The notes below the pieces were generated by a model. That model was not told the origin of the DNA, did not search any database, and saw only the letters and a program-made list of their open reading frames with translations. A DNA stretch of 64,000 bases from an uncultured Gemmataceae bacterium (GTDB taxonomy: Bacteria; Planctomycetota; Planctomycetia; Gemmatales; Gemmataceae). Positions within the stretch are counted from its first letter, which is position 1; each line of letters starts with the position of its first letter. The stretch lies in NCBI GenBank assembly GCA_963750165.1, contig CAVVPN010000003.1, forward strand, positions 1,568,001-1,632,000. The letters run 5' to 3'. The position numbers and the translations under genes were made by a program. Positions 4,962 through 29,297 of the stretch are shown here, piece by piece.

Positions 4962-4980
4962 GAGAATAAGGTTCAAGGAT

Positions 4981-5080: not shown

Positions 5081-5092
5081 ATTGAGTTTCGT

Positions 5093-6588: not shown

Positions 6589-6631
6589 GCGCACCTCCGT
6601 GTGCGTTGGGGCGGTCCTTCTTCGCTGCCGG

Positions 6632-6693
6632 CGAGCGGGGTCGCGTCAGCGCCCGTGCGCGGACGCGCACGGGCGCTGACGCGACCCCGCTCG
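6632..6693. repeat. Perfect 29-bp hairpin (REP-like)
   Basis: CGAGCGGGGTCGCGTCAGCGCCCGTGCGC-GGAC-reverse complement; resembles the hairpin at 34342. Confidence 0.9.
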
Positions 6694-6699
6694 TTTGAT

Positions 6700-11005: not shown

Positions 11006-11075
11006 ACTCGGTTGTCTGCCGCAAGCGGCAGACAAGAAGTCTTCCCGCCCGGACATCGCCTCCAGGACCCCACCC

Positions 11076-12293
11076 ATGCCGGACTTCACCTACGAAGCCA
11101 TCGCCACCAGCGGCCAGCGCAGCCAGGGCACGCTGACCGCCAACAACGAGCGCGACGCCGCCGCCCAGCTCGACGCCCGCGGTCTCTATCCGCTGCGCAT
11201 CCACGCCCCGCGGCAGAGCGGCGCCACCGCCAACCTCCGCACCGGCGGCAAAAAAGTCGGCGCCCGCGTCATGGCCAACTTCTACTCGCAGCTGGCCGAC
11301 CTGCTGCACTCCGGCGTGCCGCTGCTGCGCAGCCTCGACATCCTCGAACGTCAGAGTTCCGCCCCGGCCCTGTCCGCCGTCCTCCGCGACATCCGCACCC
11401 GCGTCGCCGACGGCACCAGCATGGCCGACGCCATGGCGCTGCACCCACGCACCTTTAACGAACTCGCCATCAGCATGATTAAAGCCGGCCAGGAAGGCGG
11501 CTTCATGGAAGACGTGCTCAAGCGCATCGCCGACTTCACCGAACAGCAGGAGGACCTCAAGGGCAAGGTCGTCGGCTCCATGGCCTACCCGGTCTTTCTG
11601 GCCATCGCCGGCACCGCCATCCTGCTCATCCTGGTGATTTTCTTCGTTCCGCAATTCCGGCCCATCTTCGCCAAGCTCGAAGAAAAGGGCGAACTGCCGT
11701 TCGTCACCACCTTGTTGCTCAACTTCAGCGCTTTCCTGATCGGCTACTGGTGGATGATGCTCATTGGGCTCGTCGGCAGTATCATCGGCTTCAAGTCCTG
11801 GGCGGCCTCCGAGAGCGGCCGCTGGGCCATGGACCGCATCCGCCTGCGATTGCCGCAGGCCGGCACCATTTTCCTCAACCTGGCCCTGTCGCGCTTCACG
11901 CGCATCCTGGGTACGCTGATGCACAACGGCATCCCGATTTTGAACGCGCTGCGCATCGCCAAGGACTCGACCGGTAACCGGGTGCTCGCCGAGGCCATCG
12001 ACAAGGCCGCGGACAACGTCACCGGCGGCAAGTCCCTGGCGCAGCCGTTGGCTGCGTGCAAATTCTTCCCGCGCGACGTGGTCGAGATGGTGTCCGTCGG
12101 CGAGGAGAGCAACAGCCTGGAGACGGTGCTGCTCAACATCGCCAACGGCCTGGAAAAACGGACGATGCGGCAACTGGAGCTGTTTGTGCGCTTGTTGGAG
12201 CCGGTCATGCTGCTCGTCATGGCTGGCGTGACGCTGGTGATCGTGACCGGACTGCTGCTGCCGGTGTTCAAGATGAGCAGCACGGTGCAGTAA
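11076..12293 (+). CDS. gspF: Type II secretion inner-membrane platform protein GspF/PilC
   Basis: MPDFTYEA start, SGVPLLRSL, AGQEGG, MAYPVFL, VGEESNSLE and LLEPVMLL. Confidence 0.93.
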   Translation: MPDFTYEAIATSGQRSQGTLTANNERDAAAQLDARGLYPLRIHAPRQSGATANLRTGGKKVGARVMANFYSQLADLLHSGVPLLRSLDILERQSSAPALSAVLRDIRTRVADGTSMADAMALHPRTFNELAISMIKAGQEGGFMEDVLKRIADFTEQQEDLKGKVVGSMAYPVFLAIAGTAILLILVIFFVPQFRPIFAKLEEKGELPFVTTLLLNFSAFLIGYWWMMLIGLVGSIIGFKSWAASESGRWAMDRIRLRLPQAGTIFLNLALSRFTRILGTLMHNGIPILNALRIAKDSTGNRVLAEAIDKAADNVTGGKSLAQPLAACKFFPRDVVEMVSVGEESNSLETVLLNIANGLEKRTMRQLELFVRLLEPVMLLVMAGVTLVIVTGLLLPVFKMSSTVQ

Positions 12294-12312
12294 ACCAGCG
12301 AGTTCCTGGTCG

Positions 12313-12344
12313 GAGCCCGAGCGCCAGCGCTGGCGCTCAAGCTC
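12313..12344. repeat. Short REP-like palindrome
   Basis: GAGCCCGAGCGCCAG-CG-CTGGCGCTCAAGCTC; a shortened relative of 46510-46569. Confidence 0.65.
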
Positions 12345-12629
12345 GGACTCACACTGCCGACGTCATGAAAAAAATCGTCGCAAGTTGTGTCCGCTGTCGC
12401 GTTCGGGTGGTGCCGGGTGCCTCTCATAAACGGGAAGGCACGTTCCCGTCATGGATGAAGCAAGTTGTTTGCTATGCTGGCTTTACGCTTAGGAAAAAAT
12501 TTCCAATTTATTAATGGCAGTGGAACTTGAGCAAAGGTAGAAAACATTCATCAGTCTTTAATGGCGTGCCGTGGTAAGATTACCCCATCGAACAGGGAAT
12601 CTCGGCAATTGAGAGGGAGGAACGAGACC

Positions 12630-13055
12630 ATGCTGAAGCGCACGACCACAACGGTTGTGGTGGCCGCACGAGAAACGCGGAGCGGCTTCACCTTGATGGA
12701 AATGCTGGTGGTGGTGGCGATCATCGTCATCCTCGCCGGGGCGGCGACGCCGCTGGTGCTGAACTACCTGGCCCAGGCCCGCATGGACCGGGCCAAACTG
12801 GATATCAAGAAACTTGAGACGGCGGTCGGCGGTTTCTACGCCAAGCACGGTACATACCCGCAGACCCTGCCACAGCTGACCCAGCCGGATATCGACGGCA
12901 ATCCGCCCGTCCTGGGTATGCAGGATCTCCTGGACCCCTGGGGCAACCAGTACCAGTATAACCCTCAGCAGTTTACCAGCCGCGGCGTCCCGATGATCTC
13001 GTCCGGCGGCCCCAACGGGCAATCCCAGAATTTGAACAACAACAATATCAAATAG
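12630..13055 (+). CDS. gspG: Major pseudopilin GspG-like
   Basis: GGAGG RBS, prepilin site G|FTLMEMLVVVAII, and DPWGNQYQY...SSGGPNG. Confidence 0.88.
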   Translation: MLKRTTTTVVVAARETRSGFTLMEMLVVVAIIVILAGAATPLVLNYLAQARMDRAKLDIKKLETAVGGFYAKHGTYPQTLPQLTQPDIDGNPPVLGMQDLLDPWGNQYQYNPQQFTSRGVPMISSGGPNGQSQNLNNNNIK

Positions 13056-13107
13056 GGATCGTCGCCACGCCGTCCTTCCCGCCTGCCAAGGAACGAACCA
13101 GGAGAAT

Positions 13108-13605
13108 ATGGTGCGCACGCAACGCAAAGGAGCCTCGCTGTTCGAGATCATCGTGGTGATGGCCATCCTGGTCATCGCCGCGGGGCTCGCCGTGCCCTCT
13201 CTGAAATCCATGATGGGCAACACGCCCATGAAGGCGGCCGCGGATCAGGTCAAGTCGCGCTGGGCGGAGGCGCGGGCCAAGGCCATCGAGGAGGGCAAGC
13301 CCTATCGCTTCCAGATCAAGGACAGCACCAGTTACCGCATCGCCCCCGATGACGACTTCGACAGCTCCAGCGGTCTGGACGACACGCTGCCCAAGGACGT
13401 GACCTTCGGCAGCACCAGCAACACTGGCAACAACACTGGCAACAGCAACGGCAACAACACCAGCAGCACGAACGCCGACGGCAACGTCAGCATCATTTTC
13501 CTGCCGGACGGCACGACCACCTCGGACGTGGAACTGGGCCTGAAGGGCCAGGGCTATGCGCCCGTAACGCTGAAACTGAACAAGACCACCGGCGCCTCCC
13601 GCTGA
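13108..13605 (+). CDS. Minor pseudopilin (GspH/FimT-like)
   Basis: G|ASLFEIIVVMAIL, ARAKAI and IIFLPDGT. Confidence 0.8.
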   Translation: MVRTQRKGASLFEIIVVMAILVIAAGLAVPSLKSMMGNTPMKAAADQVKSRWAEARAKAIEEGKPYRFQIKDSTSYRIAPDDDFDSSSGLDDTLPKDVTFGSTSNTGNNTGNSNGNNTSSTNADGNVSIIFLPDGTTTSDVELGLKGQGYAPVTLKLNKTTGASR

Positions 13606-13632
13606 CGCTGGTGGCCGCCTGCGGGAAGGAAG

Positions 13633-14136
13633 ATGGCCATGCTCGCTCGCACTCGTCAGGGCTCGCCACGGCAGGCCCGGCGCTCCGGTCTGACACTCCT
13701 GGAAGTGCTGGTGTCCCTGGCCATCTTCCTGCTGTCCCTGGTGGCTCTCTCCCGCCTCATGGGCATGGGCACCGACTTTGCCCGCGACTCGCAGCAGCAG
13801 ACTGAATGCCTGCGCCTGGCCCAGTCCAAGTTGAACGAGGTCATGGCCGGCGTCATCAGCTGCAGCAGCGGCGGCAGTTCCGGCAGCTTCGACGAGAACC
13901 CCGACTTTCAGTACACGGTGGACATCGAGCCGAACGCCGATTTCTCTTCCTCTTCCAACCTGTACGACATCACCGTGACCGCGTTCCGCCAGCGGCCCGA
14001 CGGCACGAAAATGTCCGTCACCGTCAACCACACGCTCTTCGACCCCAGCCTGCGCGGCACCACCGTCAACACCAGTTCGTCCTCGTCGTCCTCGTCCTCG
14101 TCCTCATCCTCAACCACCAGCGGAGCCGGCCAGTGA
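13633..14136 (+). CDS. Minor pseudopilin (GspI-like) with poly-Ser tail
   Basis: G|LTLLEVLVSLAIF and LAQSKLNE; operon position. Confidence 0.8.
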   Translation: MAMLARTRQGSPRQARRSGLTLLEVLVSLAIFLLSLVALSRLMGMGTDFARDSQQQTECLRLAQSKLNEVMAGVISCSSGGSSGSFDENPDFQYTVDIEPNADFSSSSNLYDITVTAFRQRPDGTKMSVTVNHTLFDPSLRGTTVNTSSSSSSSSSSSSSTTSGAGQ

Positions 14137-15117
14137 TGACACACCCCCCCGCCGGCGCGCGGCGCGCGCGCCGCGTTTACACTGCTGGAAGTGATCCTGG
14201 CGCTGAGCATTTCGCTGCTCCTGCTGGGGGCGCTGTACGTCGCCCTGCAGATCCTCATGTCCAGCACGGACACTGGCCGCAGTCTGGTGACCGAGGCCAA
14301 CGTGTCGCGCGGCGTTTTTAACAAAATCACCAGCGACATCAACTCCAACCTGACGCCGCTCGACCCGCGCTTCAACAACGCCATCAACCTGCCCGACGGC
14401 ACCAACACGCCCATCGGCGCCGCCGCGGCCGCCGCCAACAGCAGCAGCAGCGGCACGACCAGTTCGGGCACCTCGGGCACCACGAGCGGCAGCGGTTCCG
14501 GTTCGGGCACCGGCGGTGGTTCCAGTTCGGGCACCGGCGGTGGTAGCGGCAGCAGTAGCGGCAGCAGCAACACGACGCCGCCCGCGCCCGCCGGCACGCC
14601 GGTGACCTTCAACCTCATGGTCCAGGGCGATTCCAGCTGCTTGACGCTGTATCTCGTCACGGTGCCGCGGGCGCCGTTGGACGCCCTCAAGGCCACCGCT
14701 GCTGCCGACGGGACGGACATGCCGTTGCCCGTGGCCGACCTGCGGCGCATCAGTTACTGCCTGATCGATGGCAAGGGCCTCGCTCGCCAGGAAATCAAGA
14801 TGGTGACGGATGTCAACTCGGTGGCCACCCTGCCGCCGAGCCTCTCCACCGACGACCCCGGCACCACAATCGTGGGCGAGGGCGTCACGTCCGTGCAGTT
14901 TCAATACTGGGACGGCATGGAATGGCAGGACAGCTGGGACGGCACCATGCTGAGTTCGATTGACATGGTGACGCCGCAGGGGCCGCCGATGGCCATTGCC
15001 GTCACCATCACCATGAAGCGCCCCGGCAACATGGGCGACCGTACTTACAAGCACGTCGTCGCCATCCCAACCGCCAACAACGGGATCGCCTCGGCCACCA
15101 CCACCAGCGGCTCCTAA
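14136..15117 (+). CDS. Minor pseudopilin (GspJ-like); 1-nt frameshift in the C7 run at 14144-14150
   Basis: The ATG overlapping the upstream stop is 1 nt out of frame with A|FTLLEVILAL. VQFQYWDGMEWQDSWD...PMAIAVTI at the C-terminus. Confidence 0.78.
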
Positions 15118-15130
15118 CCCGGGCAAAGCC

Positions 15131-16963
15131 ATGCTGCACCAACCGACTTCCCGTGCGACCGGCCACGACCGGCGGGCCTTCGTCATCCTGATGGTTCTCA
15201 TCGTCGTGGTCGTGCTGTCACTGGCCGCCTACCACTACGTCGATCTGACGCTGTCGGAATCCAAGGTGTCCGAGAAGACAGTGAAGCTGGCGCAGGCGCG
15301 GCTGGCCGCTGACGCCGCCGTCAACTGGGCGATGGCCGCCCTGGCGACGCCGACCGCGATCAGCGGTGATCCGCTCAACGGGGTGGTCTTCAGCAACCAG
15401 GCCGTGCTGCAGGGCAAGACCCTGGGCACCAGTTCGCAGGTCGTCTGGAGCATTATCACGCCCGCTTACCAGGACGACGGCGGCATCAGCCAGACCGGAG
15501 CCAGCACCGGCGTCGGTTCAGGCACCAACGGCAACTTCCGCTTTGGCTTCGGCGACGAGGGGGCCAAGATCAACCTCAACGGCGTCATGAAGCAGGATCC
15601 GACGGGCGTGACGCTGTACAACATGCTGATGCTGCTGCCCAACATGACCGACCCCATCGCCGCGTCCATCTGCGTCTGGCTGGGCGGCACGGACGACCCC
15701 AACAACCCCAACTACCCCGTACTGGTCAACGGGGCCACGGACGCTTATTACACCTCGCTCAACCCGTCCTACCAGGGCAAATACGGCCCCATCGACAGCC
15801 TGGAGGAATTGCTGCTGGTCCAGGGCGTGACGCCGCAACTGCTGTTCGGCAACGACCGCAACCGCAACGGCACCCTCGAACCGGACGAGGATCAGGGCAT
15901 TTACGGCTACCCGAGCATGGGCTGGTCGCTGTACCTGACGGTGTACACCCGTGACCGCAACGTGGACTACATGGGCAACCCGCGGGTTAACCTCAACGAC
16001 CCCAGCGTCACCGACGCGCCGACGTTGCTGCAAAACTTGACGACGGCCGGCGTGGACGAGAACCTGGCGGCGTTCATCGTGCTGTACCGCATGTTAGGGG
16101 CGTCATCGGCGCCGCCGGCCACGTCGTCCACGCCGGCCCCGACCACCAGCGGTTCCGGCGGCAAGGGGGGGACCAGCAAGAACACCAAGCCCGCGCCGGT
16201 GACGGGAACCGTGTCGGCTGGCGTGGTCGATCAGGCCGTCAGCGCTGCCGCCGCCAAAAGCAGCAGCAGTAGCAGCAGTAGCAGCAGCAGCAGCAGCGGC
16301 ACGACCAGCGCCTTCAAAGCGACGGTTTCGTCGCCGTACGATCTGATTGGCACGTGGGTAATGATCGCGGGCGCAACGCCCCAGGATCCGGACACGTATT
16401 ACCCCTGCCCGCTCAACGACTCGACGCAGCTGCCGACGCTGCTGCCGACGCTGCTGGATGAGACAACGACTTCCGCATCGACGGAGTTTTTCGGGCGCAT
16501 CAACATTAACACCGCGTCGCCGGCGGTGCTGGCGACGCTGCCAGCGGTGCTACCGGGCTATTCCGCGAGCAACAGTTCGTCCTCGAGCGGCAGCACGTCC
16601 TCGAGCGGCAGCTCGACCCCGAACCCGGCCCAGACGCTGACCAGCGACCAGATCACGGCGATCGTCAACGCCCAACCGCAGATGAACTCGGGCCAGCCGC
16701 TGGACCCGATGTACAACTCGCCAGCCTGGCTGATCTCGCAAGCCAATCTGCCGGTGGCGCTGGTCAAGAACCTGGACAAGTACATCACCACACGCTCGGA
16801 CGTGTATCGGATGCAGGCGCTCGGCTACTTCGGCGACGGCAGCAGCGGCCCGGTGGCGCGGATCGAGGCCGTCATCGACGCCAACGGCGGTCAGCCGCGC
16901 CTCCTGTACCGCCGTGACCTCACGGAACTGGGCAAGGGCTTTGACCTGCCGCCGTCGCAGTGA
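15131..16963 (+). CDS. gspK: Minor pseudopilin GspK-like
   Basis: A|FVILMVLIVVVVL, DEGAKINLN, SLEELLLVQGVT, GRININTAS and ITTRSDVY. Confidence 0.85.
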   Translation: MLHQPTSRATGHDRRAFVILMVLIVVVVLSLAAYHYVDLTLSESKVSEKTVKLAQARLAADAAVNWAMAALATPTAISGDPLNGVVFSNQAVLQGKTLGTSSQVVWSIITPAYQDDGGISQTGASTGVGSGTNGNFRFGFGDEGAKINLNGVMKQDPTGVTLYNMLMLLPNMTDPIAASICVWLGGTDDPNNPNYPVLVNGATDAYYTSLNPSYQGKYGPIDSLEELLLVQGVTPQLLFGNDRNRNGTLEPDEDQGIYGYPSMGWSLYLTVYTRDRNVDYMGNPRVNLNDPSVTDAPTLLQNLTTAGVDENLAAFIVLYRMLGASSAPPATSSTPAPTTSGSGGKGGTSKNTKPAPVTGTVSAGVVDQAVSAAAAKSSSSSSSSSSSSSGTTSAFKATVSSPYDLIGTWVMIAGATPQDPDTYYPCPLNDSTQLPTLLPTLLDETTTSASTEFFGRININTASPAVLATLPAVLPGYSASNSSSSSGSTSSSGSSTPNPAQTLTSDQITAIVNAQPQMNSGQPLDPMYNSPAWLISQANLPVALVKNLDKYITTRSDVYRMQALGYFGDGSSGPVARIEAVIDANGGQPRLLYRRDLTELGKGFDLPPSQ

Positions 16964-16969
16964 GCTGGC

Positions 16970-17002
16970 AGTCAGGGTCAGAAGTCAGAACTCAGAAGTC
17001 AG
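16970..17002 (+). repeat. Degenerate heptamer tandem repeat (AGTCAGA)n
   Basis: AGTCAGGGTCAGAAGTCAGAACTCAGAAGTCAG directly after gspK. Confidence 0.6.
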
Positions 17003-17081
17003 CAAGCAGGCTCGTACCTCATGCGTGTGCGCGTCCCCGACTTCCTCGCAACGGCCAACTAACATCAGGGAGACTTGCTTC

Positions 17082-18721
17082 GTGTCACGTTTTCTCGGCA
17101 TCGACTGGGACCAACACCAGTTGCACATACTCCAGGGCGGCGGTCGCGGCAGCGCTTGCCTCGAACGCGCGGCGCTGTCGCTGGACGGCGTCACCTTCAC
17201 CCCCGCGAACGCGGAGGCCGCCGGCAAGCTGCTCCGCCAGCGCCTCAAGGAGGCCGGCTTCGAGGCCGCGCCCGTGCTGGCCACCGTCAGCCGGGATCGG
17301 GTCGTTCTCAAGGAAGTCCGCATCCCGCCAGTCGCCGAGAACGAGGAACCGGCCCTCGTCCGCTTCCAGGCCGCCAAGGAACTTACCGAGGCGGACAACG
17401 TGGTCATTGACTACTGCTCCCGCCCCGGCAACGGCGACCGCCGCGCCTTCGTGGTGGCGCTCCGCAAGGATGTGGTCAATTTCTTCCAGTTAATGTGCAA
17501 GGCAGCTGGCCTGAAACTGCTGACGTTGACGCCGCGCGCCTTCGGCACCGCCATCGCTGTGCAGCACAGCCCCGTCAAGCCCGGCGCCGATTCGCCGGTG
17601 GCGGTCGTCTCGCTGGCGCCGCACTGGGCCGAGTTCTTCATCCTCCGCGGCGAACAGATCGTGTTCTCGCGGCCGTTGATGCCCGGCGCCGGCCTGCCCG
17701 GTGAGGTGCGCCGCAACCTGGCCGCCTTCGCCAATCAGGGGCCGCGCCAGAACGGCGCGGATCAGGTGCAGGGCCTGTACCTGGCCGGCAGCGAGGAGCA
17801 CCCCGACCTGCAACTGCAGCTGGAGCAGTCGCTCGGCCTGCCGGTCTATCCGCTGGATCCGTTCGCGGGCCAGGACAAGCTGCATTTCGCCGGCGGACCG
17901 CGCGGCGGCTTCACACCGCTGGCCGGCCTGTTGCTTGGCTGGTCCGCCCGCCAGCGCTGTGCCATCAACCTCGTCAAACCGCGCGAGCCCACCACCGCCG
18001 CTGACCCCAACCGCCGCAAGAAGGTGCTGGCGGCCCTGCTGGGTGTCGCCGCTTTGTTCCTGCTCGGCTCGCTGGCCCTCGCCTTCCAGGCGGGCGAGGC
18101 CCACAGGGAAGAGGAATTGCGGGATGTCGTCGGCAATCTCGACAACGAACTTCGCAAGCTGGACCCCGAGGCCAAACAGATCGAGGCCCTGAAAAACTGG
18201 ATGGGCAACTCCGTGTCGGTGATCGACGAACTGTACGACCTGACCGCCCTGTTCCCGCACAAGAAGGGGCTGCACCTCAAGGAAATCTCGTTCGCGTTAC
18301 GGGACGCGAAGGCCGCCGGAGGACCGGGCAAGGCGCCGCCACCAGCGCCGCCGCCGCCCGGAGCCAGGGACAGGAACGCGGTCCGGGAGAAGTATCACGC
18401 CGTCATGATTATCACTGGTGAGGTGCCCACCGGCGACGACCGCCTGGTGGAAAAGCTCAAGGACGACCTCAAGGAACGCGGCCGGCGGGCCAGAATCCTG
18501 TACCTGCCCGGCGCCAGCAAGAAGAACGCCAAGGAGTTCGCGCTGGAGATCGACCTGGGCCGAGCGCCCAGCGCCCCTACTCGCTGAAGCTGGTAGTGCC
18601 GCCGCCGATCTTTGATCGCAACGCCACGCCAGTGCCGCCGCCGAACCAGCAACTGCCGGCGACGGAGCAGTTGCAGCCGCCCGTCCGGGTGGAAGCGAAG
18701 GACGAGGAGGGCCAGCCATGA
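17082..18721 (+). CDS. PilM/GspL-like assembly protein fused to a PilN-like region (1-nt frameshift near 18558)
   Basis: FLGIDWD actin-like N-terminus, PALVRFQAAKEL, then INLVKPR followed by a TM helix and coiled coil. The alternative frame after 18558 ends in TGA overlapping the next ATG. Confidence 0.72.
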
Positions 18722-20403
18722 ACCCCAACGAACGTCGCAAGGCGATCCTGCTCGGCGCCCTGATCGCCACGATTCTTGTGGTCGGCGGTGGCTACTTGTT
18801 TGTGTGGCTGCCCTACCAGGAGACGCAGGCAAACATCGAACGGCTGGAGCAGGATCGGCTCGCCAAGCAGACGAAGCTCGCCCTGCTGAAGAAGGAGCAG
18901 AAGAAGCTGGAGCGCTGGCGGTTGTACAGCCTGCCGGGCGAGGTGGCCGCTCCGGTCAGGCAGCAACCCGGCCACCCGGTCGGGCCGGTCGGCAAGGACG
19001 ATCAGTATTTCTACCTGGAAGGCGAATACCTCAAATACCTGGATCACTCGCTGCTCAGGTACGACATCAGCCATGACTACCCGTCGCGCGACAAAAAGGC
19101 CGAGCCCCGGGCGGCCGGGCCGCAGGCGGCGCAGGTGCCGCCGTTCACGGCACTGACCTTCGATGTCAAGATTCAGAAGACCCGGCTGGGGAACCTGGTC
19201 AACTGGATGAACGACTTCCAGCGGACGCCGCTGCTGCAGCGCATCAAGAAGGTGACGATCAAGGTGCCGCCGGGCGCCAAGGATCCCGGCCTGCTCGACG
19301 CGGACCTCGTCGTCGAGGCGCTGATTGTGCAGGGGGCGTCGGCCAAACACGGCAAGACGCTGCTGGGCGTCGATGAGCGGCTGGTGGCGCTGAACACCTT
19401 TATCACGCTGCGCCGCGGCCCGGCCGGGCTGGCGCTGCTGCCGTACCTGGTCGGCCCCACCGGCCCCCGGGCGACGCCGCCGCTGCAGGACCAGCCGCCC
19501 GCGCGCGATTACCTGGCCCTGGCCAAGAAGGACATCTTCACCGGGCCGATTCCCGTTCGTCCGCCGAGGCCGCCGCAGCCGCCCACGGAAGAATATAAAC
19601 CGCCGCCGCCGCCGCAGTACACGGAGAACGTGGTCGCGTTCATGCGGCTGACGGACATCTCCGGGCCGGAGGCCGGGCCGCTGGAGGCGAATCTGTTTGA
19701 TCCGTCGCGCAAGGTCGCCATCCGCCTGCGGCAGCAGCGCGGCTACGACCGCTTTCCGCTGCTGGTCAATTACAAGAACGGCCCCGTCATCCTGGCTCAG
19801 CTGGCGTCCTTCGAGGGCACGCGCAGCCTGATCTTCCGCGCTGAACTGGCGGCGGTCGAGCCCTCGCCGAAATCGAGCAAGCCTTACGCCGAAACTCACG
19901 CCATTTACAAGTTGACCAAGACCGACCTGGCCGAACTGGTGGACGCCAAAAAGATCCAGTCCAAGGACATCGACCGCGTCTATCGGCTGCACACGTCGTA
20001 CTGGAACGAACTGGTGCGCGACCAGGTGCTGACGCTGGGCGGCAAGGGCGGCGGCGGGAACTTTGGCGGCGGCGGGAACTTTGGCGGCTTCCCCAAGGGG
20101 GGTGGCAAGGGCAAGGGCAAAGGTAAGGGCAGCGCGGCGCCCAAGGCCGGCAGCGAGTACGTCTCCAAGCTGGGCCTGGTGCGCGGCAAGGTGCTCACGG
20201 CGGACAGCACGCATGTGGTGTTCCTGCTCGACGAGCGCTACTGCACCACGACGGACGCGAAGGGCAATGCGGTGCGGCACTACGGCTTCTTCCGCCTGTC
20301 CGGCAAGGTGGGCGACGCCCTGCACCATCCGGTCGTGGAGGAACGGGTTGCGCGCGAGCTGCTGACCGCGCTGCGCGCACCGGACGAGGATGACGAGCCG
20401 TGA
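18718..20403 (+). CDS. T2SS assembly protein, PilO/GspM-like N-terminus with a long unknown C-terminus
   Basis: MNPNERR + TM helix + coiled coil, and LVNWMNDFQRTPLLQRIKKVTI; operon position. Confidence 0.55.
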   Translation: MNPNERRKAILLGALIATILVVGGGYLFVWLPYQETQANIERLEQDRLAKQTKLALLKKEQKKLERWRLYSLPGEVAAPVRQQPGHPVGPVGKDDQYFYLEGEYLKYLDHSLLRYDISHDYPSRDKKAEPRAAGPQAAQVPPFTALTFDVKIQKTRLGNLVNWMNDFQRTPLLQRIKKVTIKVPPGAKDPGLLDADLVVEALIVQGASAKHGKTLLGVDERLVALNTFITLRRGPAGLALLPYLVGPTGPRATPPLQDQPPARDYLALAKKDIFTGPIPVRPPRPPQPPTEEYKPPPPPQYTENVVAFMRLTDISGPEAGPLEANLFDPSRKVAIRLRQQRGYDRFPLLVNYKNGPVILAQLASFEGTRSLIFRAELAAVEPSPKSSKPYAETHAIYKLTKTDLAELVDAKKIQSKDIDRVYRLHTSYWNELVRDQVLTLGGKGGGGNFGGGGNFGGFPKGGGKGKGKGKGSAAPKAGSEYVSKLGLVRGKVLTADSTHVVFLLDERYCTTTDAKGNAVRHYGFFRLSGKVGDALHHPVVEERVARELLTALRAPDEDDEP

Positions 20404-20730
20404 GACTGAGCGCCAAAAATAATTGCCCTTCCCTTTTCCTGCGCTCCGGCGTATAGGCCCTCCACGACACATTGCCAACCGAGGGGGCCACAGGTTCATG
20501 GAGGTGGCAGCCCGTCCGCGCCCGGGGAAGCGCGGAGCCTGCGTCCGAACCGCGGCCGGGAAATCTCGCTCAATAACATGGGCGGACCCTGCCGATGGTA
20601 ACGATAATACGGAAGCAGCAGATTTTGCTGTCGCAGGCAGGAGTGATTGGCTATCATGAACAATTGGTTTGGTTGGCATAACGTCGGTAATCAGGGGTGC
20701 CGTTCTTTGGGGACCCGACAGGGGAATACC

Positions 20731-23700
20731 ATGACAAACGTGCGACGCTGCTGGCGGTGGGGAATGCTCCTTGCCGTCCTGGTGTGCAGCCAGGCGGGGC
20801 CGGCCCGTGCTCTTGCGCAGGGCCCGGTCAAGAAGGACCAGGAGACGGGCATCAAGCCGAAGGTGCTGCCGACCTACGTCTTTGAGATGAAGGACAAGCC
20901 CTGGCACGGGCCGGGCGGCGTGCTCGAGTGGCTGGTCGATAAGACCAAGATGCCCGTCATCTCCACGCACAAGCCGACGGGCTCCATGAATTTCATCTCG
21001 CCCGACAAAGTGAAGTACACCATCCCCCAGATCATCGACATCCTCAACGAGGCGCTGGCGCAGCAGCAGCTGATCCTCATCCGCAAGGTCGCCTCGATCA
21101 CACTGCTGGCCACGGACCAGCCGATCCCCGAGACGGACATCCCACGCCTGACCGAGGCGGAACTGTACGAGCGCGGCAAGACCGAACTGGCGTCGGTCGC
21201 CATCCGGCTCAAGTCGCTGGACGCCGAGACGTTCCAGAAGGAAGCAAAGGACATGCTCGGCACCTTTGGCAAGGTGACGGCCCTGCCAACCGCCAACATG
21301 CTCATCCTGCGCGACCAGGCCGGCACGCTGCGCCAGGCCATCAAAATGATCAGGGAGATGGATACTGACACTCCGGAAGGGGTCGGCAAAACCACCATCA
21401 CCTACCAATGTAAGTTCATCAAGGCGGCCGACGCCGCCGAGACCGTGACCAAGTTCCTGGGCACCGACAAGGAAGAGATTCAGGTCAAGGACAAGGCGGG
21501 CAACGTGCGGACGCGCATCCGCACTCACACCATCACCGTCGATGAAGGGCTGAACACGGTCATCATCAGCGGCCCGACCGACAAGATCGCCAAGGCCAAG
21601 GAGATCCTCGCCCAGATCGACAAGGGCGAGATCCGGTATCAGTACGGCTATCCGATCCTGCAGCGCATCGAGATCCCCAGCGGCAACGCCGAGGCCATTG
21701 CCAAGGCGGCGCAGATGGCGTTCAAGCAGTCGCAAACGCTGAACATCTCGAACATTGGCGGCACCGCCCTGCTGGTCTACGCCCGGCCGGGCGATCAGGT
21801 GAAAATTTCCCAGTTCGTCGAGGCTGCCCAGAAAGCGGCGGCGCCGGTTACGGTACTGGTGCCGTTGACCACCGCGGACGCGACCAAGCTGGCCGATACG
21901 CTCAACAAGATGCACGGTGATGCTGGCAAGGGTGGGCCGTTCATCGAGGCCGACACGGGCCGCAACGCGATCATCATCCGCGGCACTGCCCAGCAGGTCA
22001 AGGGTGTCAAGGAAGACATTGATCGCCTGCAGCAAAACACCATCGACGGCAAGAACGGCGGCCCTGCCAGTTCCACGCGCATCATCAATGTGGAGAAGGC
22101 CAGCGCCACCACCCTGGCCCGGGCCCTGCAGCGCATGATTCCGGAAATGCGGCCGGACACACACGTCAAGGTGATCCTGCCCGGCAGCGATCTGTTCAAC
22201 AAGAAGAATCTGAAGAAAAGCCTGGACGAGATGAAGAATCTGCCTCCTCTGGAGGAGCCGAAGAAGAAGATCAAGAATGACACTGGCCTGAAGACCTTCG
22301 AGGACATCCGTTACGAGGAGGCCGCCCAGGAGAAGAAGGGCGGGCTGGTCGATCCGCGCGACAGCAAACCGCTGACGCTGACGGCGTTCGGCACCAAGAT
22401 GATCGTCAACTGTGATGACCCGGCCGTCCTGAACCTGGTGCAGGACCTGGTGCGGCTGCTGACGCAGACCGACCCGGGCCCCGGCGATTTCCAGGTGGTC
22501 CGCCTGAAGTACGCCAGCGCCGTCGAGACCGCCAAGGTGCTCGACGATGCGTTCAACGGCCAGCAACAGCGCGGTGGCGGCGGCGGCGGCTTCGGCGGTG
22601 GCAAGGGCGGCGGCAAGGGTGGCGGCAAGGGCGGCGGCAAGGGCGGCGGCGGCTTCGGCGGCGGCGACCCGAGCGGCGGTATGGGGGGGGGCATGGGCGG
22701 CATGTTCATGCAGATGATGGGCGGCGGCGGTGGCCAGCGGCAGCAGAGCGTGGAGCGCGTCCGTGTCGTGGCCGACCCGTCCATTAATGCCCTGCTCATC
22801 AAGGCCAACGCCCTGGACATGCTGACGATTCGTGACCTGCTTGACATGGAACTGGACACCAACATCAACGACTCCACCGTCAAGATTCAGATGCGCTTTA
22901 TCGGCCCGCTCAAGGCGGCCAACGCCTCCGAGGTGGCCTATGTCATCCAGCGCGTCTACGCCGAGAGCATGAGCCAGGCCAACATCCAGCGGGCGGCCAT
23001 CGCAAACCTGGGAGGCTTATCGGTCGGCCAGTTCCGCGGGCCCAGCGACGGCGCCACCCACAACGTACAACTGACCCTGGGCGTGGATGACCGCTCCAAC
23101 AGCATCATCGTGGCCTGTCCCAAGGGCCTGTTCGATGAGATCAAAACCCTGGTCGATCACCTGGAGGATGGGGCGGCGAACAACACTTCGCAGGTCAAGG
23201 TCGTGTCCATCCGTAACGTGGACCCGTTGCTGGTGCAGCAGGCCGTGGACGCCATCCAGGGCCGGCGCTTGAACACGGGCCGCGGCACTGGCGGCACTGG
23301 TGGCTTCGGCGGCTTCGGCGGCGGTGGCACCGGCGGCTTCGGCGGCGGCGGCATGGGCGGCGGCCGCGGCGGCGGCGGCATGGGCGGCTTCGGCGGCGGC
23401 ACTGGCGGCTTCGGTGGCTTCGGCGGCGGCGGCACCGGTGGCTTCGGCGGCTTCGGCGGCGGCGGCCTCGGTGGCTTCGGCGGCGGCGGCATGGGCGGCG
23501 GCCGCGGCGGCATGGGCGGCGGCGGCATGGGTGGCGGCGGCATGGGTGGCGGCGGCGGCGCCCGCGGCGGCGTGGGCGGCGGCGCCCGCGGCAGCACACG
23601 CGGCTTCCTGGAGCCACAACCGGGAGGGTCGGATTTTTTCGCCTGCGGGGTCAAGGATGACCCGAAGTTCCTCGTCCTCTACGATCCGCAACAAGATCGC

Positions 23701-26700
23701 ACTTCGAGTCCTGAACCAGTAGCCTTTGCGGTGCCCCGCCAGGATGGCGGGGCGCCCACCCTCCCCCTGGACCGGGTTCCGCAGGCTGCCATCGAATTCA
23801 TGCAGATCAGCTACGAAGAAGAGCAGCAAGTCCCCGTGGTCGGCGGCGAGTCTGTCACCGGGCCGCGCCTCGGCGTCACCGCCGAGGCCCTGGAGGCGCT
23901 CGGCATCCTGGTGCTGCGGGCCAACAATCAGCAGGACCTGGAGGCGGCGCTCAAGATCATCGAGTACATCCAGAAGCTGGGCGCCCAGGCGGAAATCCAG
24001 ATTAAACTGGTGCCGCTGCAGTACGCGGATGCCGTCAGCCTGGCCAACCAGCTGGCGTTCTTCCTGCAGCGCGTCATCATCGGACCGCAGGCGGTCACGC
24101 TGTCGCCGTTCGGGCGCGGCCGGGCGGCTTCGGTCAGCAGCCCGGCGGCTTCGGTCAGCAGGGCGGCGGCTTCGGTGGTGGCTTCGGCGGTCAGCAAGGC
24201 GGTGGCTTCGGTGGCCAGCAAGGCGGTGGCTTCGGCGGTCAGCAAGGCGGTGGCTTCGGTGGCCAGCAGGGCGCCGTGAGCCTCAACCTGAGCCAGCCGG
24301 CCGGCTCGGTGGTGTTTTACCCTGTCGTCCGGCTCAACGCCCTGCTGGTGGCGGCGCCCAAGTCGCGCATGGGCGATCTGTTGCGGCGCATCGAGGACCT
24401 CGACCGGCCGCCCACCACGAAGGCGGTGTCGTTCCCGCTCAAGCGGGCCTCGGCGACCGTCGTGGCCACGCAACTGCAACAGTTCTACGCCACGCGCAAC
24501 CGCGAGTTGCAGACCCAGAACGAGATCAGCTTCGCGTCGGACCCCAACAACAACACGGTGATCGTGCAGGCCGCGCCCGGCGACCTGGCCGAGATTCGCG
24601 ATCTGATCGAGCGCTTCGACAGCGTCGCCAACAACGCCCTCAGCGACCTGAAGATCATCCCGTTGCGCAACGCCATCTCAGACGTCCTGGCGGGCATCGT
24701 GCAGAAGGCCATCTCCGATGGTTACGTGCAGCCGAGCCTGGTCGGCTCAGGCGGCCTGCTCGGGGCGACCGGCGGCGGCGTCGGCGGCGTCGCCGGTGGC
24801 GGCCTGGGCGGCGGCGGCGGCCTGGGCGGCGGCGCTGGCGGCGGCCTGGGTGGCGTGGGCGGCCTGACAGGCGGTGTCCAGACGACGCCGGGCTACAAGT
24901 ATCCCACCAAGACCAACAACCTGCGGTTCGTCAGCAACCGCAAGGACCTTGGCGGCCAGGAGGAGTCGAGCATTCTGGAGGACGTGCGCATCATCTCGGA
25001 CGCGCGCATCAACAGCCTGATCGTCGCGGCCCCGGAGCGGACCATGAAGCTGATCGAGCTGCTGGTGCGCGACCTGGACGTGCCGCCGGCCGCCCGGGCC
25101 GAGATCAACATCTTCACGCTGAAGAAGGCGGACGCGGCGTCGCTGGCCAACTCGCTGCAGCAGCTGTTCCTGGGCACCGGTGCCGCTGGCGTCGGCGGCG
25201 CCGCCGGCGGCTTCGGCGGCGGTGCCGCGGGCGGCTTCGGCGGTGCCGGCGGCGGCTTCGGCGGTGCCGGCGGTGCCGCCGGCGGTGCGGGCACCGTCCC
25301 CCTGCTGCAGCTCACGCTGGGCGGCTTCACGCCGCAAGGGGCGCCGCTGATCCAGTTGCGCATCACCGTCGATGACCGCACCAACAGCCTCATCGTCGCC
25401 GGCAGCCGCAATGACCTCGATGTCATTGAGGCCATCGTCAGCCGGCTGGAGGACAGCGACGTGGCCCAGCGGCGCGTCACGGCCATCAAGCTCAAGAACG
25501 CCCAGGCGGCCGACGTGGCCAACGCCCTGACCACGTTCGTGGCCGGCATGATCTCGGTCTGGACCAAGGGCAACCAGCTGCAGCCCTTCCAGGAAATCCA
25601 GCGCGACGTGGTCGTCGTCGCCGAGCCGATCACCAACACGGTCATCTTCAGCGCCACGGATCGCTACTTCAACGAGCTGCTGCAGATCGTGATGCGCATC
25701 GACATGCTGCCGCCGCAGGTGGTCATCCAGGCAATCATCGCCGAGGTGGACCTGACGGGCACGGAGGAGTTCGGCGTGGAAATCGCGCTGCAGTCGCCGG
25801 TGATCTTCTCCCGCGGCGTGGACAGTACAGGCACGGTGCTGAACGCCTCGTCGCCGGGCTTCAACTTCAACAACACAGCGCTGCTGCCCACGTCCAGCCC
25901 TGGAGCCGGTCCGAGCACGGTCGGTTTCCAGGGGCTGGGCAACCTGGGCACGGGCCGGGTGTCGCCCAACAGCGGCATCGGCGGCTTCGTGTTCACGGCC
26001 TCCAGCAACGCGGTCAACGTGCTGGTGCGGGCCCTGAAGACGCAGAACCGCATCGACATCCTCAGCCGGCCGCAGTTGATGACCACCGACAACCAGGCGG
26101 CCCGCCTGCTGGTCGGCCAGCAGTACCCGACCATCTCCGGGTCGGTGGCGACCACGGCCACGACCGGCATTCCGACGGTGACCAACACCATCGTCTACAA
26201 GGATGTCGGCATCTCGCTGCAGGTGACGCCAAAGGTCAACCCCGATGGCACGGTGGTGATGCGCGTCATCCCCGAGGTCTCGACCGTCCAGCCGACGATG
26301 GTGATGATTAACACCGGCACGTTCGCCACGGCCTTCAACGTGCAGACGGTCGAGACGACGGTGATCGCCCAGGACGGCGAGACGGTGGTGATCGGCGGCC
26401 TGATCCAGAAGACGGACAACAAGACGGAAAACGCGGTGCCGGTCCTGAGTAACCTGCCGATAGTCGGGGCGCTGTTCCGCTACCGCCAGCAGCTCAAGCA
26501 CAAGCAGGAGCTGATCGTCATCCTGACGCCGCACATCGTCCGCTCGCCGCTGGACGCGGATCGGGCGCTGTACGACGAGGCGCGGCGCATGGACTGGGTG
26601 CTGGGCGACGTGATGAAGATGCACGGCCCGCGCGGCATCGACGTGCTCTCGAAGGTGCCGACGTCGCACCTGAACAACCCGTTGTACAAGGGTGGGCCTG

Positions 26701-27209
26701 GCGGCCCTGGCGGCCCCGGCGGCCCCGGCGGCCCGAACGCTGGCTGCAACAGCCCCGACTGCCTGATGGGCAAGAGCGGCTCGGACCTGGGCCCGGGGAT
26801 GACGCCACCGCCGCTGGTGCCCGGCGTGGGACCGTGGGATCCCGGCTACAAGCCGGAGTACGGCCCGACGCCGCGGCCATTCGTGCCGCAGCAGCCGACG
26901 CTGCCGGCCACCCCGGCGCCGATGCCGAAAACGGTCCCGCCAGCGGCGCCGACCACCGCCCCGCCGCCGATGCCGGCCGCTCCGCTGTCGTTCGCGCCGG
27001 TGGCACCGCAGACGCACGTGACGCTGACCGGCCAACCGCAGGGGACGCCGGTGCTGCCGGTGCTGCCGGCGCTGCCGGCCCAACCGCAGATCGTGCTGCA
27101 ACCGCCGGCCTCGGTGCCGCCTGGCCATACGGTGATGCCAGTGAACATCGTCCCCATGAACATGAACATGGGTCCCATTTCGGACACTCAGGGAAGGGAG
27201 TCCCGGTAA
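20731..27209 (+). CDS. gspD: Giant type II secretin, about 2,159 aa after repairing a 1-nt frameshift at 24112-24114
   Basis: Signal peptide, repeated secretin N-domains and a C-terminal secretin domain (QVVIQAIIAEV, ILSRPQLMTTDNQAA, DVGISLQVTPKV, DGETVVIGGLI, PVLSNLPIVGALFR, ELIVILTPHIV). One added G joins the two track ORFs through GGFGQQ repeats. Confidence 0.9.
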
Positions 27210-27279
27210 TGGTCGCGGTCTCGTTCGCACAGGGTTCGGAGACGGCGACGCCGCGCCCGCGCCCCGACAGGGGGCGCGG

Positions 27280-28665
27280 GTGGGGTGGGTCGCGCGTCTG
27301 GGATTGTGGCTGGGGCTGGCCGTGGCGCCGCTGACCGGTTGTACCACCGGTGACAAGCTGTTCTGCTGCCCGGACTGGCTGCACGGGTCGCCGTTGGTCA
27401 ACGACAACGCGGTGTGCCAGGTCGTGGCGACCTGGCAGAGTGAAGTGCAGTGGACGATTGATCCGGTCAACTACGGATCGACGCTGCCGGGCCTGGCGGG
27501 CAAGGTGTACCTGTTCGGTCAGGAGGCTAATCAACCGCTGGTGGGTGGCGGTGAGCTGGAGGTGGAGGTGTTCGACGAAAGCCGGCCGAACGCCCCGCCG
27601 CAGCGCCTGGAGAAATACAAGTTCGACAGGAAGTCGCTCCGGGAACTCATGCGTCAGGATCCGATTGGTTGCGGCTACACGGTGTTCCTGCCGTTGACCG
27701 CGTACCGGCCGGACATCACCCAGGTCCGGTTCAAGGTCTGTTACAAGACGGAGCGCGGCAACCCGCTGTACACGATCAGCAACACGACGGCGATCGTGCA
27801 TGGCGACCGGTCGAACCAGAGCCTGGGGCCGGTACTGGCGAAGGCGGTGGGAATGCCGCTGTCGCCGGCTGGCGGCCCGCAGCAGCAGGTGTACCAGCAA
27901 CAGCCGTACCAGCAACAGCCGTACCAGCAGCAGGTCCAGGCATCGTTCTACCAGCAGCAACAACAGCAGCAGTATCAGCAACAACAGCAACAGCAGTGGC
28001 AACAACAGCAACCGCAGTGGCAGCAACCGCCGCCGGCGAACATGCAGCGGTTCGCGATACCAACGGGGCCAACGCTGCCCAACCCGGGGTTGCAGCAGGG
28101 GCAATACCCACCGCAGCAGGGGCAATACCCACCGCAGCAGGGGCAATACCCACCGCAGCAGTCGGCGTTCGCGTCGGCGACCACGGGCGTTCCAGGTTAC
28201 CAGCCCACGCAGCCGCCGGCCGCGACGATGCAACCGATGCCACCGGTCGCGCGGAAGCCCGAGGCGATTCAGACGGGGCCGCCGGCGGATCTGCTGCCCC
28301 ACCTGCGACCGGAGCCTGGGACGGCGCCGCCGTACACACCGCCGAACCAGACGGGCGGACGAGTGCTGCAGTCGGTGTTCCCGGCGGTGCCGCCGATGCC
28401 GCCGCCGGACAACGGCCGGCCGGGGCAGCCGGTGACGACGGGTCTGCTGGTGGTGCCGCCGCCGCAACCCGGCGCGCTGGAGCCGGCGATCCCGCAAGCC
28501 AAGCCTGGGCGGGCGGGACTGGAGATGTCGTCGGGACTGCCGCCGACGGCGCCGGCCGTGGCGCCGGTGGGCCAGATCCAGCTGCTGCCACCGATTGCGA
28601 CACAGCCGTCTGCGGCCGAGTCCGGCGAGTCGTCGGGACTGCGGGTGCTGTACTCGAACCACTGA
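27280..28665 (+). CDS. Lipoprotein with Gln/Pro-rich tail (true start may be 27209 via a frameshift)
   Basis: Lipobox LTGC, a globular region (GLAGKVYLF...GCGYTVFLP), then QQQPY and QQGQYPP repeats. Confidence 0.7.
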   Translation: MGWVARLGLWLGLAVAPLTGCTTGDKLFCCPDWLHGSPLVNDNAVCQVVATWQSEVQWTIDPVNYGSTLPGLAGKVYLFGQEANQPLVGGGELEVEVFDESRPNAPPQRLEKYKFDRKSLRELMRQDPIGCGYTVFLPLTAYRPDITQVRFKVCYKTERGNPLYTISNTTAIVHGDRSNQSLGPVLAKAVGMPLSPAGGPQQQVYQQQPYQQQPYQQQVQASFYQQQQQQQYQQQQQQQWQQQQPQWQQPPPANMQRFAIPTGPTLPNPGLQQGQYPPQQGQYPPQQGQYPPQQSAFASATTGVPGYQPTQPPAATMQPMPPVARKPEAIQTGPPADLLPHLRPEPGTAPPYTPPNQTGGRVLQSVFPAVPPMPPPDNGRPGQPVTTGLLVVPPPQPGALEPAIPQAKPGRAGLEMSSGLPPTAPAVAPVGQIQLLPPIATQPSAAESGESSGLRVLYSNH

Positions 28666-28693
28666 CGGTCGCGGGCGGTGCAGGATCAACCTG

Positions 28694-28734
28694 GAGAGCG
28701 GCCCTTCGTTATGGGAGGGCCGCTCTCTGTTTTT
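28694..28734 (+). terminator. Intrinsic terminator of the T2SS operon
   Basis: GAGAGCGGCCCTTC...GGAGGGCCGCTCTC followed by a T-tract. Confidence 0.75.
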
Positions 28735-28751
28735 CGGCGCAGGAAGGAGTC

Positions 28752-29180: not shown

Positions 29181-29297
29181 CCGAACCGGAGCCGATCCCA
29201 CAGATTTTCCCGGCTTTTCTGGCGAACCCGCCGCATTTGTGTTACAACAAATTCCTCCGTGGCATGAAACCCCCTTGAGTCTCAGCGAGAGTAACCC

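Follow-up and report, generated by a model that had tools for sequence, protein, structure and literature searches.

A GspD-like secretin with thirteen N domains and variable glycine-rich loops in an uncultured Gemmataceae bacterium

Introduction

Secretins of the GspD type (GspD, PulD and XcpQ; PDB 6hcg, 5wq7, 5wln, 5zdh; TIGR02517) are chains of approximately 650 aa that combine an N0 domain and three KH-like N domains with a pore domain. In the last N domain, helix 1 is followed by a variable loop, and the proteins are encoded in gspE-K operons. Extra N rings are known from PilQ of Thermus thermophilus, a 757-aa protein of type IV pili and DNA uptake, in which six rings (N0-N5) extend over 35 nm and cross a wide periplasm, with Gly-containing loops forming a second gate in N1 (PMC5745081). 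Six is the largest number of N rings among the solved secretins that we compared. Disordered or low-complexity sequences in N3 can form a periplasmic constriction or curtain: the variable N3 loop of InvG constricts the periplasmic lumen and, in the needle-filled channel, passes outward between the N domains (PMC6155069), and BfpB has a Ser-rich N3 extension (PMC12114550), each with a single Ser-rich or mixed loop per chain. The rhizobial secretin RhcC1/RhcC2 is split into a pore-less N-domain protein and a separate pore protein; its halves are of separate origin and contain one N domain (PMC3459982).

Here we describe a locus in a window of 64,000 nucleotides from an uncultured Gemmataceae bacterium (all coordinates refer to this window). 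It shares with GspD, PulD and XcpQ the domain types, the loop site and the operon, but differs in having 13 N domains in approximately 2,160 aa, long inserts in many of them, a PilM-like gene and no identified GspC. Whereas T. thermophilus PilQ belongs to a pilus system, the 14 domains found here are encoded in a T2SS-like operon, and in place of the single loop of InvG or BfpB there are five Gly-rich loops of 60-200 aa. Relatives in Pirellulales and Planctomycetales are split like RhcC1/RhcC2; unlike the rhizobial proteins, the two planctomycete chains are each collinear with part of a single long protein, and in the window both parts are fused in one gene. Within the literature covered, largely open-access main texts, we found no account of these long secretins.

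Results and discussion

A GspD-like secretin in a gspE-K operon

The locus contains the following features:

9299..16963, + strand: gspE, gspF, gspG, gspH, gspI, gspJ and gspK (Pfam, family models, synteny)
16914..20403, + strand: PilM/GspL-like gene and gene for a 561-aa single-pass membrane protein
20731..27209, + strand: GspD-like secretin gene (2,159 aa once a one-base indel is read through)
27280..28665, + strand: conserved lipoprotein-like gene (LTGC), candidate pilotin
28692-28729: terminator-like hairpin after the lipoprotein-like gene

Judged from its sequence, the protein is a predicted GspD-like outer-membrane secretin of a T2SS, with a PF00263 domain, an N0 domain after a Sec signal and an operon that also encodes GspE, GspF and the pseudopilins G-K; it departs from the GspD definition in having 13 KH-like domains instead of exactly three (N1-N3). 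Its first and second halves, scored separately, reached 146.9 and 349.7 bits with TIGR02517 (GspD; cut-off 351.35), the best-matching model. The PilQ model TIGR02515 reached 184 bits, compared to 350 for GspD, and Pfam gave no match to the AMIN domain that defines PilQ. The gspE-K operon is conserved around the Gemmatales orthologs, and T2SS models are the best matches of GspE, GspF and GspG-K, most of them just under or below the curated cut-offs. Among the operon genes, GspC, GspM and a pilotin were not identified, and for the lipoprotein encoded downstream all matches were to unnamed clusters of Planctomycetota. No Rfam match was obtained in 18000-30000 and no sigma-70 promoter was found on the + strand in 20300-28900.

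One gene with a probable assembly error

At the secretin locus, an ORF at 20731-24279 is followed by a second frame that is open at 24006-27209. The preliminary description had joined them by a one-base repair into a chain of about 2,159 aa, and the comparison with orthologs bears this out: the frame was unbroken at the corresponding site in all 29 fetched Gemmatales orthologs. We built the chain with X at 24112-24113. Complete single-ORF orthologs (n=23) have 1,835-2,304 codons, and among the 120 homologs listed the median length was 2,024 aa, with most around 2,000 aa. The overlap of the ORFs at GTGA (24276-24279) and the occurrence of split secretins in the phylum might suggest that the source organism has two genes or uses a programmed frameshift. 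However, natural splits lie in N8 and the break here lies in N9, the second ORF has no signal peptide of its own, neither a slippery heptamer nor a run of at least 4 bases was found at the break, and 44 other out-of-frame ORF pairs across the genome each match one intact paralog. A genuine break is therefore highly improbable; the frameshift is most probably an assembly error. In Gemmatales, N domains and pore are encoded by a single gene, which sets them apart from secretins split in the manner of RhcC1/RhcC2.

Domain architecture and a putative long periplasmic tube

The gene can be divided as follows:

20731..20817, + strand: Sec-type signal peptide ending ALA|Q (by eye from sequence)
20875..21114, + strand: N0 domain (AlphaFold2, Foldseek, conserved block)
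21184..22464, + strand: N1-N5 (alignment, own half-domain HMMs, AlphaFold2)
22486..22851, + strand: N6, with Gly-rich insert 22558-22755 (GGKG/GGMG) (alignment, AlphaFold2)
22888..23166, + strand: N7 (alignment, AlphaFold2)
23191..23982, + strand: N8, with 203-aa insert 23263-23871 (GGFGG/RGG tract, motif, Pro/Gln linker)
23620..23688, + strand: conserved GG(P)DFFxxxVKDDP..L(Y/F)DP motif within the N8 insert
23995..24404, + strand: N9, with GGFGGQQ insert 24073-24305 and the indel inside (alignment, AlphaFold2 of ortholog G012)
24112..24114, + strand: GGG run, probable site of a one-base assembly deletion (orthologs continuous)
24420..25703, + strand: N10-N13, with Gly-rich inserts in N11 (24720-24980) and N12 (25173-25352)
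25710..26546, + strand: secretin pore domain (PF00263, E 1.1e-46; Foldseek/VIA top matches GspD)
26547..27206, + strand: conserved helical S-domain-like segment, then variable Pro-rich tail

A Sec/SPI signal peptide was also assigned to the ortholog of Tuwongella immobilis (PMC8567305 supplement). The best Foldseek matches of N0 were the N-terminal domains of XcpQ and GspD, and N13 is the counterpart of GspD N3. Alignment gave N0 plus 13 N domains, in agreement with the approximately 13 repeats counted by eye before, and AlphaFold2 reproduced the beta-alpha-beta-beta-alpha pattern in N1-N8 of the window's own sequence and in N9-N13 modelled on G012. Profile searches detected the repeats but fell short of this number, as Pfam reported Secretin_N in 5+4 stretches and Secretin once on the two ORFs and our custom half-domain HMMs picked up 11 and 10 of the 13. 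The median identity of the N-domain cores is 24%, indicating that the repeats are old, and N6 and N12 gave no BLAST alignment with each other. Two of N2-N4 are missing in eight of the 25 orthologs, and the number of N domains in Gemmatales is 11-13.

The protein is a real secretin, stretched to 13 ring-forming domains compared to three to five in studied channels. The data show a single exported chain, encoded in a conserved gspE-K operon, in which N0 and 13 KH-like N domains precede a pore domain. We favor, with a probability of about 0.6, the interpretation that this T2SS-like (type IV filament) outer-membrane secretin forms, with its soft loops, a long conduit or tether in the periplasm. 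With approximately 15 chains and an assumed rise per ring, stacking of the N domains would give a tube of about 47-55 nm; the extra-long periplasmic tube proposed earlier is the likely product. Such a tube would run from the platform in the inner membrane to the pore in the outer membrane and guide the endopilus and its cargo, and it may tether both membranes. If confirmed, 14 domains here and up to approximately 50 in relatives (in one chain or two) would redefine the reach of secretion channels and the evolution of their length.

The N array could instead coil, splay or act as a binding platform. Low pTM values of the models (0.32 and 0.35) permit other arrangements of the domains, although low values would be expected whenever a ring-forming protein is modelled as a monomer, and in relatives with 28-49 N domains, as in Phycisphaerae, complete stacking would result in a length of approximately 90-180 nm. 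Moreover, pore-less N-domain proteins with signal peptides occur in genome G000 and relatives, and N-domain pieces are inserted in one DUF2330 protein and one VIT/VWA protein, which might be among the partners if the N array captures cargo or other proteins as a flexible arm or docking platform in the periplasm. In the solved secretins compared, however, N domains form stacked rings, and we consider such an arm unlikely.

Glycine-rich inserts and the nucleoporin analogy

Five Gly-rich inserts, in N6, N8, N9, N11 and N12, are all located between helix 1 and strand 2 and have lengths of 66, 203, 78, 87 and 60 aa with 38-58% Gly; N5 carries a 76-aa insert that is not Gly-rich. The common position after the first helix had been noted before and was confirmed, but the description of the inserts needs qualification: the N8 insert is Gly-rich over only approximately its first 115 aa and continues with the conserved motif DFF..VKDDP..LYDP and a linker of Pro and Gln, and the N11 insert contains no FG dipeptide. 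The proposed equivalence to the disordered N3 loop of GspD holds, since the insert site aligns to residues 288-303 of PulD, which are unresolved in cryo-EM, and pLDDT was below 50 in the modelled inserts (N6 and N8 of the window; N9, N11 and N12 of G012). XcpQ has a Gly-rich loop at the same site.

FG nucleoporins and RGG/GAR domains are disordered and low in charge, and the former carry Phe-Gly motifs. The preliminary description had suggested, as a speculation, that the loops line the tube and could form a nucleoporin-like selective mesh. On this reading, a cohesive gel of lumen-filling Phe/Gly/Arg loops would sort macromolecules that enter or leave. The loops of the window fit the description of an FG barrier in so far as they are predicted to be disordered, are nearly neutral in charge and contain 21 FG dipeptides, and they lie at a site that is able to face the lumen in InvG and BfpB. 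With a median of 11 FG per chain, 15 chains and a volume of 1,670 nm3, the FG concentration would be approximately 0.16 M. Phe was indeed the main hydrophobic residue of the Gly segment of N8 (F 6.8%, L 1.8%, Y 0.1%), and all 25 orthologs have at least 4 Phe in N8 and at least 1 in N6. Uptake of GFP and dextran into the periplasm of Gemmata, the route of which is unexplained, would suit such a mesh as well.

The distribution of the loops argues against it. The FG count of the window exceeds that of every ortholog (0-19, n=25), and the extent of its Gly tracts exceeds that of all 108 full-length homologs. FG dipeptides are missing from N9, N11 and N12 in 14, 11 and 13 of the 25 orthologs, so that the expected conservation of FG was not found, and at least 25% Gly together with at least 2 FG occurred in only 10, 16, 4, 6 and 7 orthologs for the five loops in turn. 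Of 120 longer relatives (3,564-4,978 aa, 28-49 N domains), 97 lack Gly tracts, as do most pore chains of Pirellulales and Planctomycetales. Similar tracts are present in 70 of the 6,482 ORFs of the source genome, GGFGG tracts being frequent in its proteome, and they are found in many unrelated proteins. The spacers are nearly pure Gly with RGG, in contrast to those of FG nucleoporins, the location is periplasmic, and an operon-encoded endopilus of 60 Å or wider must occupy the lumen. At the assumed ring rise, the inserts of 15 chains together would take up about 65% of a 7.5-nm lumen. We know of no transport-receptor analogue. Accordingly, the inserts appear too variable, besides being absent from much longer relatives, for the nuclear-pore-like filter to be more than weakly supported, and we regard it as quite improbable. 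The analogy also needs correction in that the long tube can be separated from the Gly/Phe loops.

For the favored long tube with soft loops, the inserts would represent low-complexity expansions at a site, the helix 1-strand 2 loop, that varies in all secretins. They would be placed partly in the lumen and partly threaded out between rings, probably as soft, displaceable plugs or linkers rather than as a receptor-gated sieve.

The N8 insert marks the split site of relatives

N8 is the only loop that retains both Phe and RGG, near-constantly across orthologs. It contains RGG as well as FGG and appears closer to RGG/FGG sequences, such as those of RGG/GAR domains, than to FG nucleoporins. The remaining Gly tracts of the source genome favor Met and Tyr, and pure drift does not explain the selective Phe and Arg composition of N8.

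This largest loop coincides with the point at which the secretin gene of Pirellulales, Planctomycetales and some Phycisphaerae is divided, one chain being pore-less and the other containing the pore. The pore-less chains of Planctomycetia end with N7 in 17 of 18 cases (the 18th scored best as N13), followed by an unpaired half domain and a tail of 26-115 aa, and three split Phycisphaerae loci break at the equivalent half domain. The N8 insert is therefore best read as a fusion or fission linker, and it may have originated from the Gly/Arg/Phe tail of a pore-less chain fused to the start of a pore chain; our quick tree did not give the direction.

Trans-complementation of N8 between the two chains was considered as a general principle. 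It is weakened by the observation that most Pirellulales pore chains retain their own first N8 half, so that two-chain complementation is not general.

Distribution, expression and crateriform structures

The T. immobilis ortholog (GMBLW1_47910) has been detected by proteomics and also in a cell-wall preparation, and we regard the secretin as a candidate component of crateriform structures. A fibre-extruding or uptake system that corresponds to the large crateriform structures, in which the secretin acts on polysaccharide or anchors pili assembled from pilin families that are expanded in planctomycetes, with cationic-aromatic loops binding polyanions, could draw on several observations. Large crateriform structures join both membranes and bear 12-nm dextran-binding fibres, T. 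immobilis has 100 N_methyl proteins, the operon includes a PilM-like gene, and the slime nozzles of myxobacteria and cyanobacteria are made of GspD or PilQ. In the giant relatives the loops are Arg-rich (10% R compared to 5% in the cores), but those of the window are close to neutral. The operon contains no retraction ATPase, and its best matches are to T2SS models as described above. Furthermore, the genomes encode other secretins (six in G000), one of which is approximately tenfold more abundant than the ortholog in T. immobilis. With this query, the module was found in none of the 29 genomes of another family (f5) and was missing in five of the 25 genomes of the window's own family. Altogether, we consider this explanation rather unlikely. 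Crateriform complexes keep the inner membrane near the wall (PMC5394234), so that a span of 50 nm may be unneeded there.

A combined model, in which the secretin is the crateriform core, a modular tube of 50-180 nm made of one chain, or of two via a split N8, with a Gemmatales-specific RGG/FG gel that gates uptake, seems very improbable; if true, an RGG/FG-lined secretin would be a bacterial counterpart, in function, to the barrier of the nuclear pore. As the ortholog is expressed in cultured T. immobilis and genetic tools are reported for the phylum, it is directly testable which molecules make up the crateriform structures and how GFP and dextran cross the planctomycete outer membrane.

A 'cationic lumen' as a phylum-wide feature was likewise considered and is weakened by the loops of split-form pore chains, which carry a net negative charge.

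A long secretin at the end of a type II secretion-like operon

The GspD-like secretin is a real, conserved long variant of the T2SS secretin, and apparently one that is undescribed to date. Its gene lies among the following features of the window:

1495-8753, - strand: LPS genes (RfaP-like kinase, HldE, LpxK), divergent, just upstream of the operon
20731-27209, + strand: secretin gene (N0, N1-N13 and pore domain)
20731-24279, + strand: first long ORF of the secretin region
24006-27209, + strand: second long frame, open throughout
27280-28665: lipoprotein-like gene
29298-31777: DUF5117/DUF4953 zinc metalloprotease gene with another frameshift near 30020-30060

Translated across the break, with X at 24112-24113, the two frames yield a product of 2,159 aa, as the preliminary description had estimated after a one-base repair. 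The GC3 signal passes from the first to the second frame at about 24100-24300, the break site is a GGG run without a slippery heptamer, and a signal peptide is lacking from the second ORF. Among 35 regions retrieved from the stronger matches in 61 genomes, 29 belong to the window's family or order, and in all 29 the N9 loop is uninterrupted; 23 are intact, with one complete open frame of 1,835-2,304 codons each, three are cut by contig ends and three are broken elsewhere. Across the assembly, 1,642 adjacent ORF pairs were candidates, of which 44 correspond to successive parts, in different frames, of a single intact paralog; real pseudogenes may be among them. Judged from these sequence comparisons, the frame break is an artefact.

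The operon starts with gspE-F-G-H-I-J-K and continues with a PilM/GspL-like gene and an unassigned gene for 561 aa; the secretin gene closes it, with a lipoprotein-like gene and then a hairpin resembling a terminator downstream. Orthologs in Gemmatales are found in the same arrangement. The named close homologs are from Gemmataceae, which makes the host a probable member of this family. The ortholog from Tuwongella immobilis (P0098, VTS06166.1; name taken from the source) is expressed according to the supplement of PMC8567305, which lists it as a protein of 220 kDa but gives no peptide coverage, so that the product detected may be full-length or shorter, and in which its three nearest neighbours are undetected. 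A 2,076-codon Gemmatales-type secretin with adjoining operon genes (L073) also occurs on a contig labelled Alcaligenaceae, which is probably mis-binned.

In an alignment with 25 orthologs, N0 and 13 N domains could be marked off, the latter with 55-61 core residues each, in agreement with the number previously counted by eye. Pfam recognizes the repeats but fewer of them, with five Secretin_N stretches before the break and, after it, four more and the Secretin domain. AlphaFold2 modelling of residues 46-1127 produced N0 and the beta-alpha-beta-beta-alpha pattern in N1-N8 (mean pLDDT 66, pTM 0.32), and an AlphaFold2 model of the ortholog from the related genome G012 has the same pattern in N9-N13, together with the pore domain (pLDDT 63, pTM 0.35). 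The top fold matches of the models were T2SS secretins. Five Gly-rich inserts (38-58% Gly in the window), in N6, N8, N9, N11 and N12, all lie between helix 1 and strand 2, in keeping with the position after the first helix described before, and are disordered, with pLDDT <50 in the models.

Databases annotate the long secretins simply as GspD. No description of them was found in the literature searched, although a mention may exist in supplements or in subscription papers; the passages of PMC5287468 mention neither secretin nor FG repeat, and the main text of PMC6668835 does not mention planctomycetes.

Fused, split and super-giant forms

Long secretins occur in three states in the phylum. The fused form has about 2,000 aa, with all 13 N domains in 17 of the 25 aligned orthologs and without two of N2-N4 in the other eight. 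In the split form, present in six of six class-level genomes that were examined, one chain of 997-1,515 aa runs from N0 to N7 and has no pore, and the pore lies on another chain of 929-1,452 aa that starts with the second half of N8. Of 18 pore-less chains, 17 have a last full domain whose best score is as N7; by alignment and eye, it is followed by an unpaired strand-helix half and a mostly Gly/Arg-rich tail of 26-115 aa. Rhizobial RhcC1/RhcC2 (PMC3459982) are a precedent for a secretin divided between two proteins. The window's largest loop, in N8, falls at this break point. Three Phycisphaerae-type loci are also split mid-domain, the pore chain beginning at the unpaired second half, whereas most Pirellulales pore chains retain their own first half. 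Of 121 genomes in the class, 84 gave a match to the N7-N8 module (20/25 in the window's family; 18/18, 28/28 and 5/5 in three others), and with this query none of the 29 genomes of family f5 did. In a quick tree built from the pore and the N domain next to it, both sides contain fused as well as split forms; based on 54 rows selected by us, it does not fix the direction, fusion or fission.

The super-giant form is represented by 369 proteins of 3,563-5,000 aa (the latter being the upper bound of the search) that match the C-terminal part, and open frames of 3,655-4,852 codons were present in 10/10 genomes checked. In the 120 proteins listed, 28-49 N domains were detected, which is a lower bound, as the same HMM (0 matches in 20 shuffled sequences) sees 10 of 13 in the window secretin and Pfam gives 54 for the super-giant P0155. 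Because 97 of these 120 are devoid of a Gly tract, Gly/Phe loops are not needed for a long tube. The helix 1-strand 2 loops of super-giants P0151-P0270 are Arg-rich (SRRGRR-like; 10% Arg vs 5% in the cores), not Gly/Phe-rich.

Position and composition of the Gly-rich loops

The insert site aligns with PulD residues 288-303, a known variable loop unresolved in cryo-EM, in line with the earlier statement that the equivalent GspD N3 loop is disordered; XcpQ has a short Gly-rich loop at the same site. InvG, compared here by description, has a single N3 variable loop that accounts for a periplasmic constriction but passes outward through the gap between N domains when the lumen is occupied by the needle (PMC6155069). 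The N3 extension of BfpB is Ser-rich and lies beneath the gate (PMC12114550), and in Thermus PilQ a second gate is formed by Gly-containing loops (PMC5745081).

Across the 25 orthologs, the composition of the loops is kept but their sequence is not. The N8 insert has at least four Phe in 25/25 and RGG in 21/25, whereas FG is absent from N6 in nine, N9 in 14, N11 in 11 and N12 in 13, and the total per chain is 0-19 (median 11; 21 in the window). Hence, conservation held for the Phe residues of N8 and not for FG in the other four inserts. With 48% G, 9% R, 7% P, 7% F and scarcely any Y, W, I or V, the make-up of the N8 Gly segment speaks for a degree of selection on Arg and Phe. In view of the general properties of both domain types, the segment is closer in appearance to RGG/GAR domains than to FG nucleoporins.

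The window's secretin stands apart, as none of 108 full-length homologs matches its amount of Gly tract; six reach its number of Phe in tracts and 81 have at least five. Tracts of this kind are common in the proteome: among 6,482 called ORFs, 70 have one and 32 contain GGFGG, and by eye another secretin of the genome has one at seemingly the same loop position. This second, short secretin (L183, G000:C11:733505-735720), frameshifted too, carries a GGLGG/GGFGG insert in an N domain.

The preliminary description proposed that the Phe-Gly loops could form a nucleoporin-like selective mesh. If all loops were in the lumen, FG would reach about 0.16 M by our arithmetic, and the constancy of Phe in N8 would suit such a filter. 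However, the dry volume of the nine longer inserts, at 15 copies each, comes to about 1,086 nm3 vs about 1,670 nm3 of lumen (assuming 14 rings, 7.5 nm bore and 2.7 nm rise), and 15 N8 inserts alone 328 nm3 vs 119 nm3 per ring; since the endopilus must pass the same lumen, the inserts cannot all sit there. With FG numbers unsteady between orthologs, Gly tracts not tied to long tubes and similar tracts widespread in the proteome, we consider a selective mesh possible but unlikely.

A GG(P)DFFxxxVKDDP..L(Y/F)DP motif (window 23620-23688) is conserved in the Gemmatales N8 insert, was not found in the 120 super-giants listed, and could be a docking strand or processing site. Many homologs have a short hydrophobic-(S/A)-(Y/A)-(E/Q) motif in the N5 and N8 inserts (window ~22300-22340 and ~23790-23830, respectively; by eye also in the downstream lipoprotein, 27280-28665), and some copies resemble a signal-peptide end.

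Possible function

The N domains would stack as rings into a tube of 47-55 nm, scaled from PulD (20 nm), that may act as conduit and tether, with the Gly-rich loops as soft plugs or linkers. The long secretin is a candidate for the crateriform structures, because these connect the outer membrane with the inner one and carry 12-nm dextran-binding fibres (PMC5394234). On the other hand, crateriform structures hold the membranes close (PMC5394234), other secretins coexist (six secretin genes in the window's genome), and family f5 yielded no N7-N8 module with this query.

N domains outside secretins

At G000:C4:554126-557354 (L181) and G000:C11:767587-768648 (L182), the window's genome has four genes that encode N domains without a pore and whose starts resemble signal peptides. 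Three are tandem copies (N0-N2, N0-N4 and N2-N4) with 55-62% protein and 71-80% DNA identity to the window secretin; the fourth is an N4-N6 copy whose N6 has no Gly loop. Similar genes occur in several relatives, and several Pirellulales-type genomes (L158, L159 and others) have, at other loci, at least two paralogous pore-less N-domain chains, each about 1,000 aa long. N-domain pieces are also inserted in otherwise unrelated exported proteins, namely the second half of N8 in a DUF2330 protein (L180, G000:C3:2258690-2260276) and N0-N4 with N7/N8-like pieces in a 2,590-aa FecR/VIT/VWA protein (L160:8124-15893).
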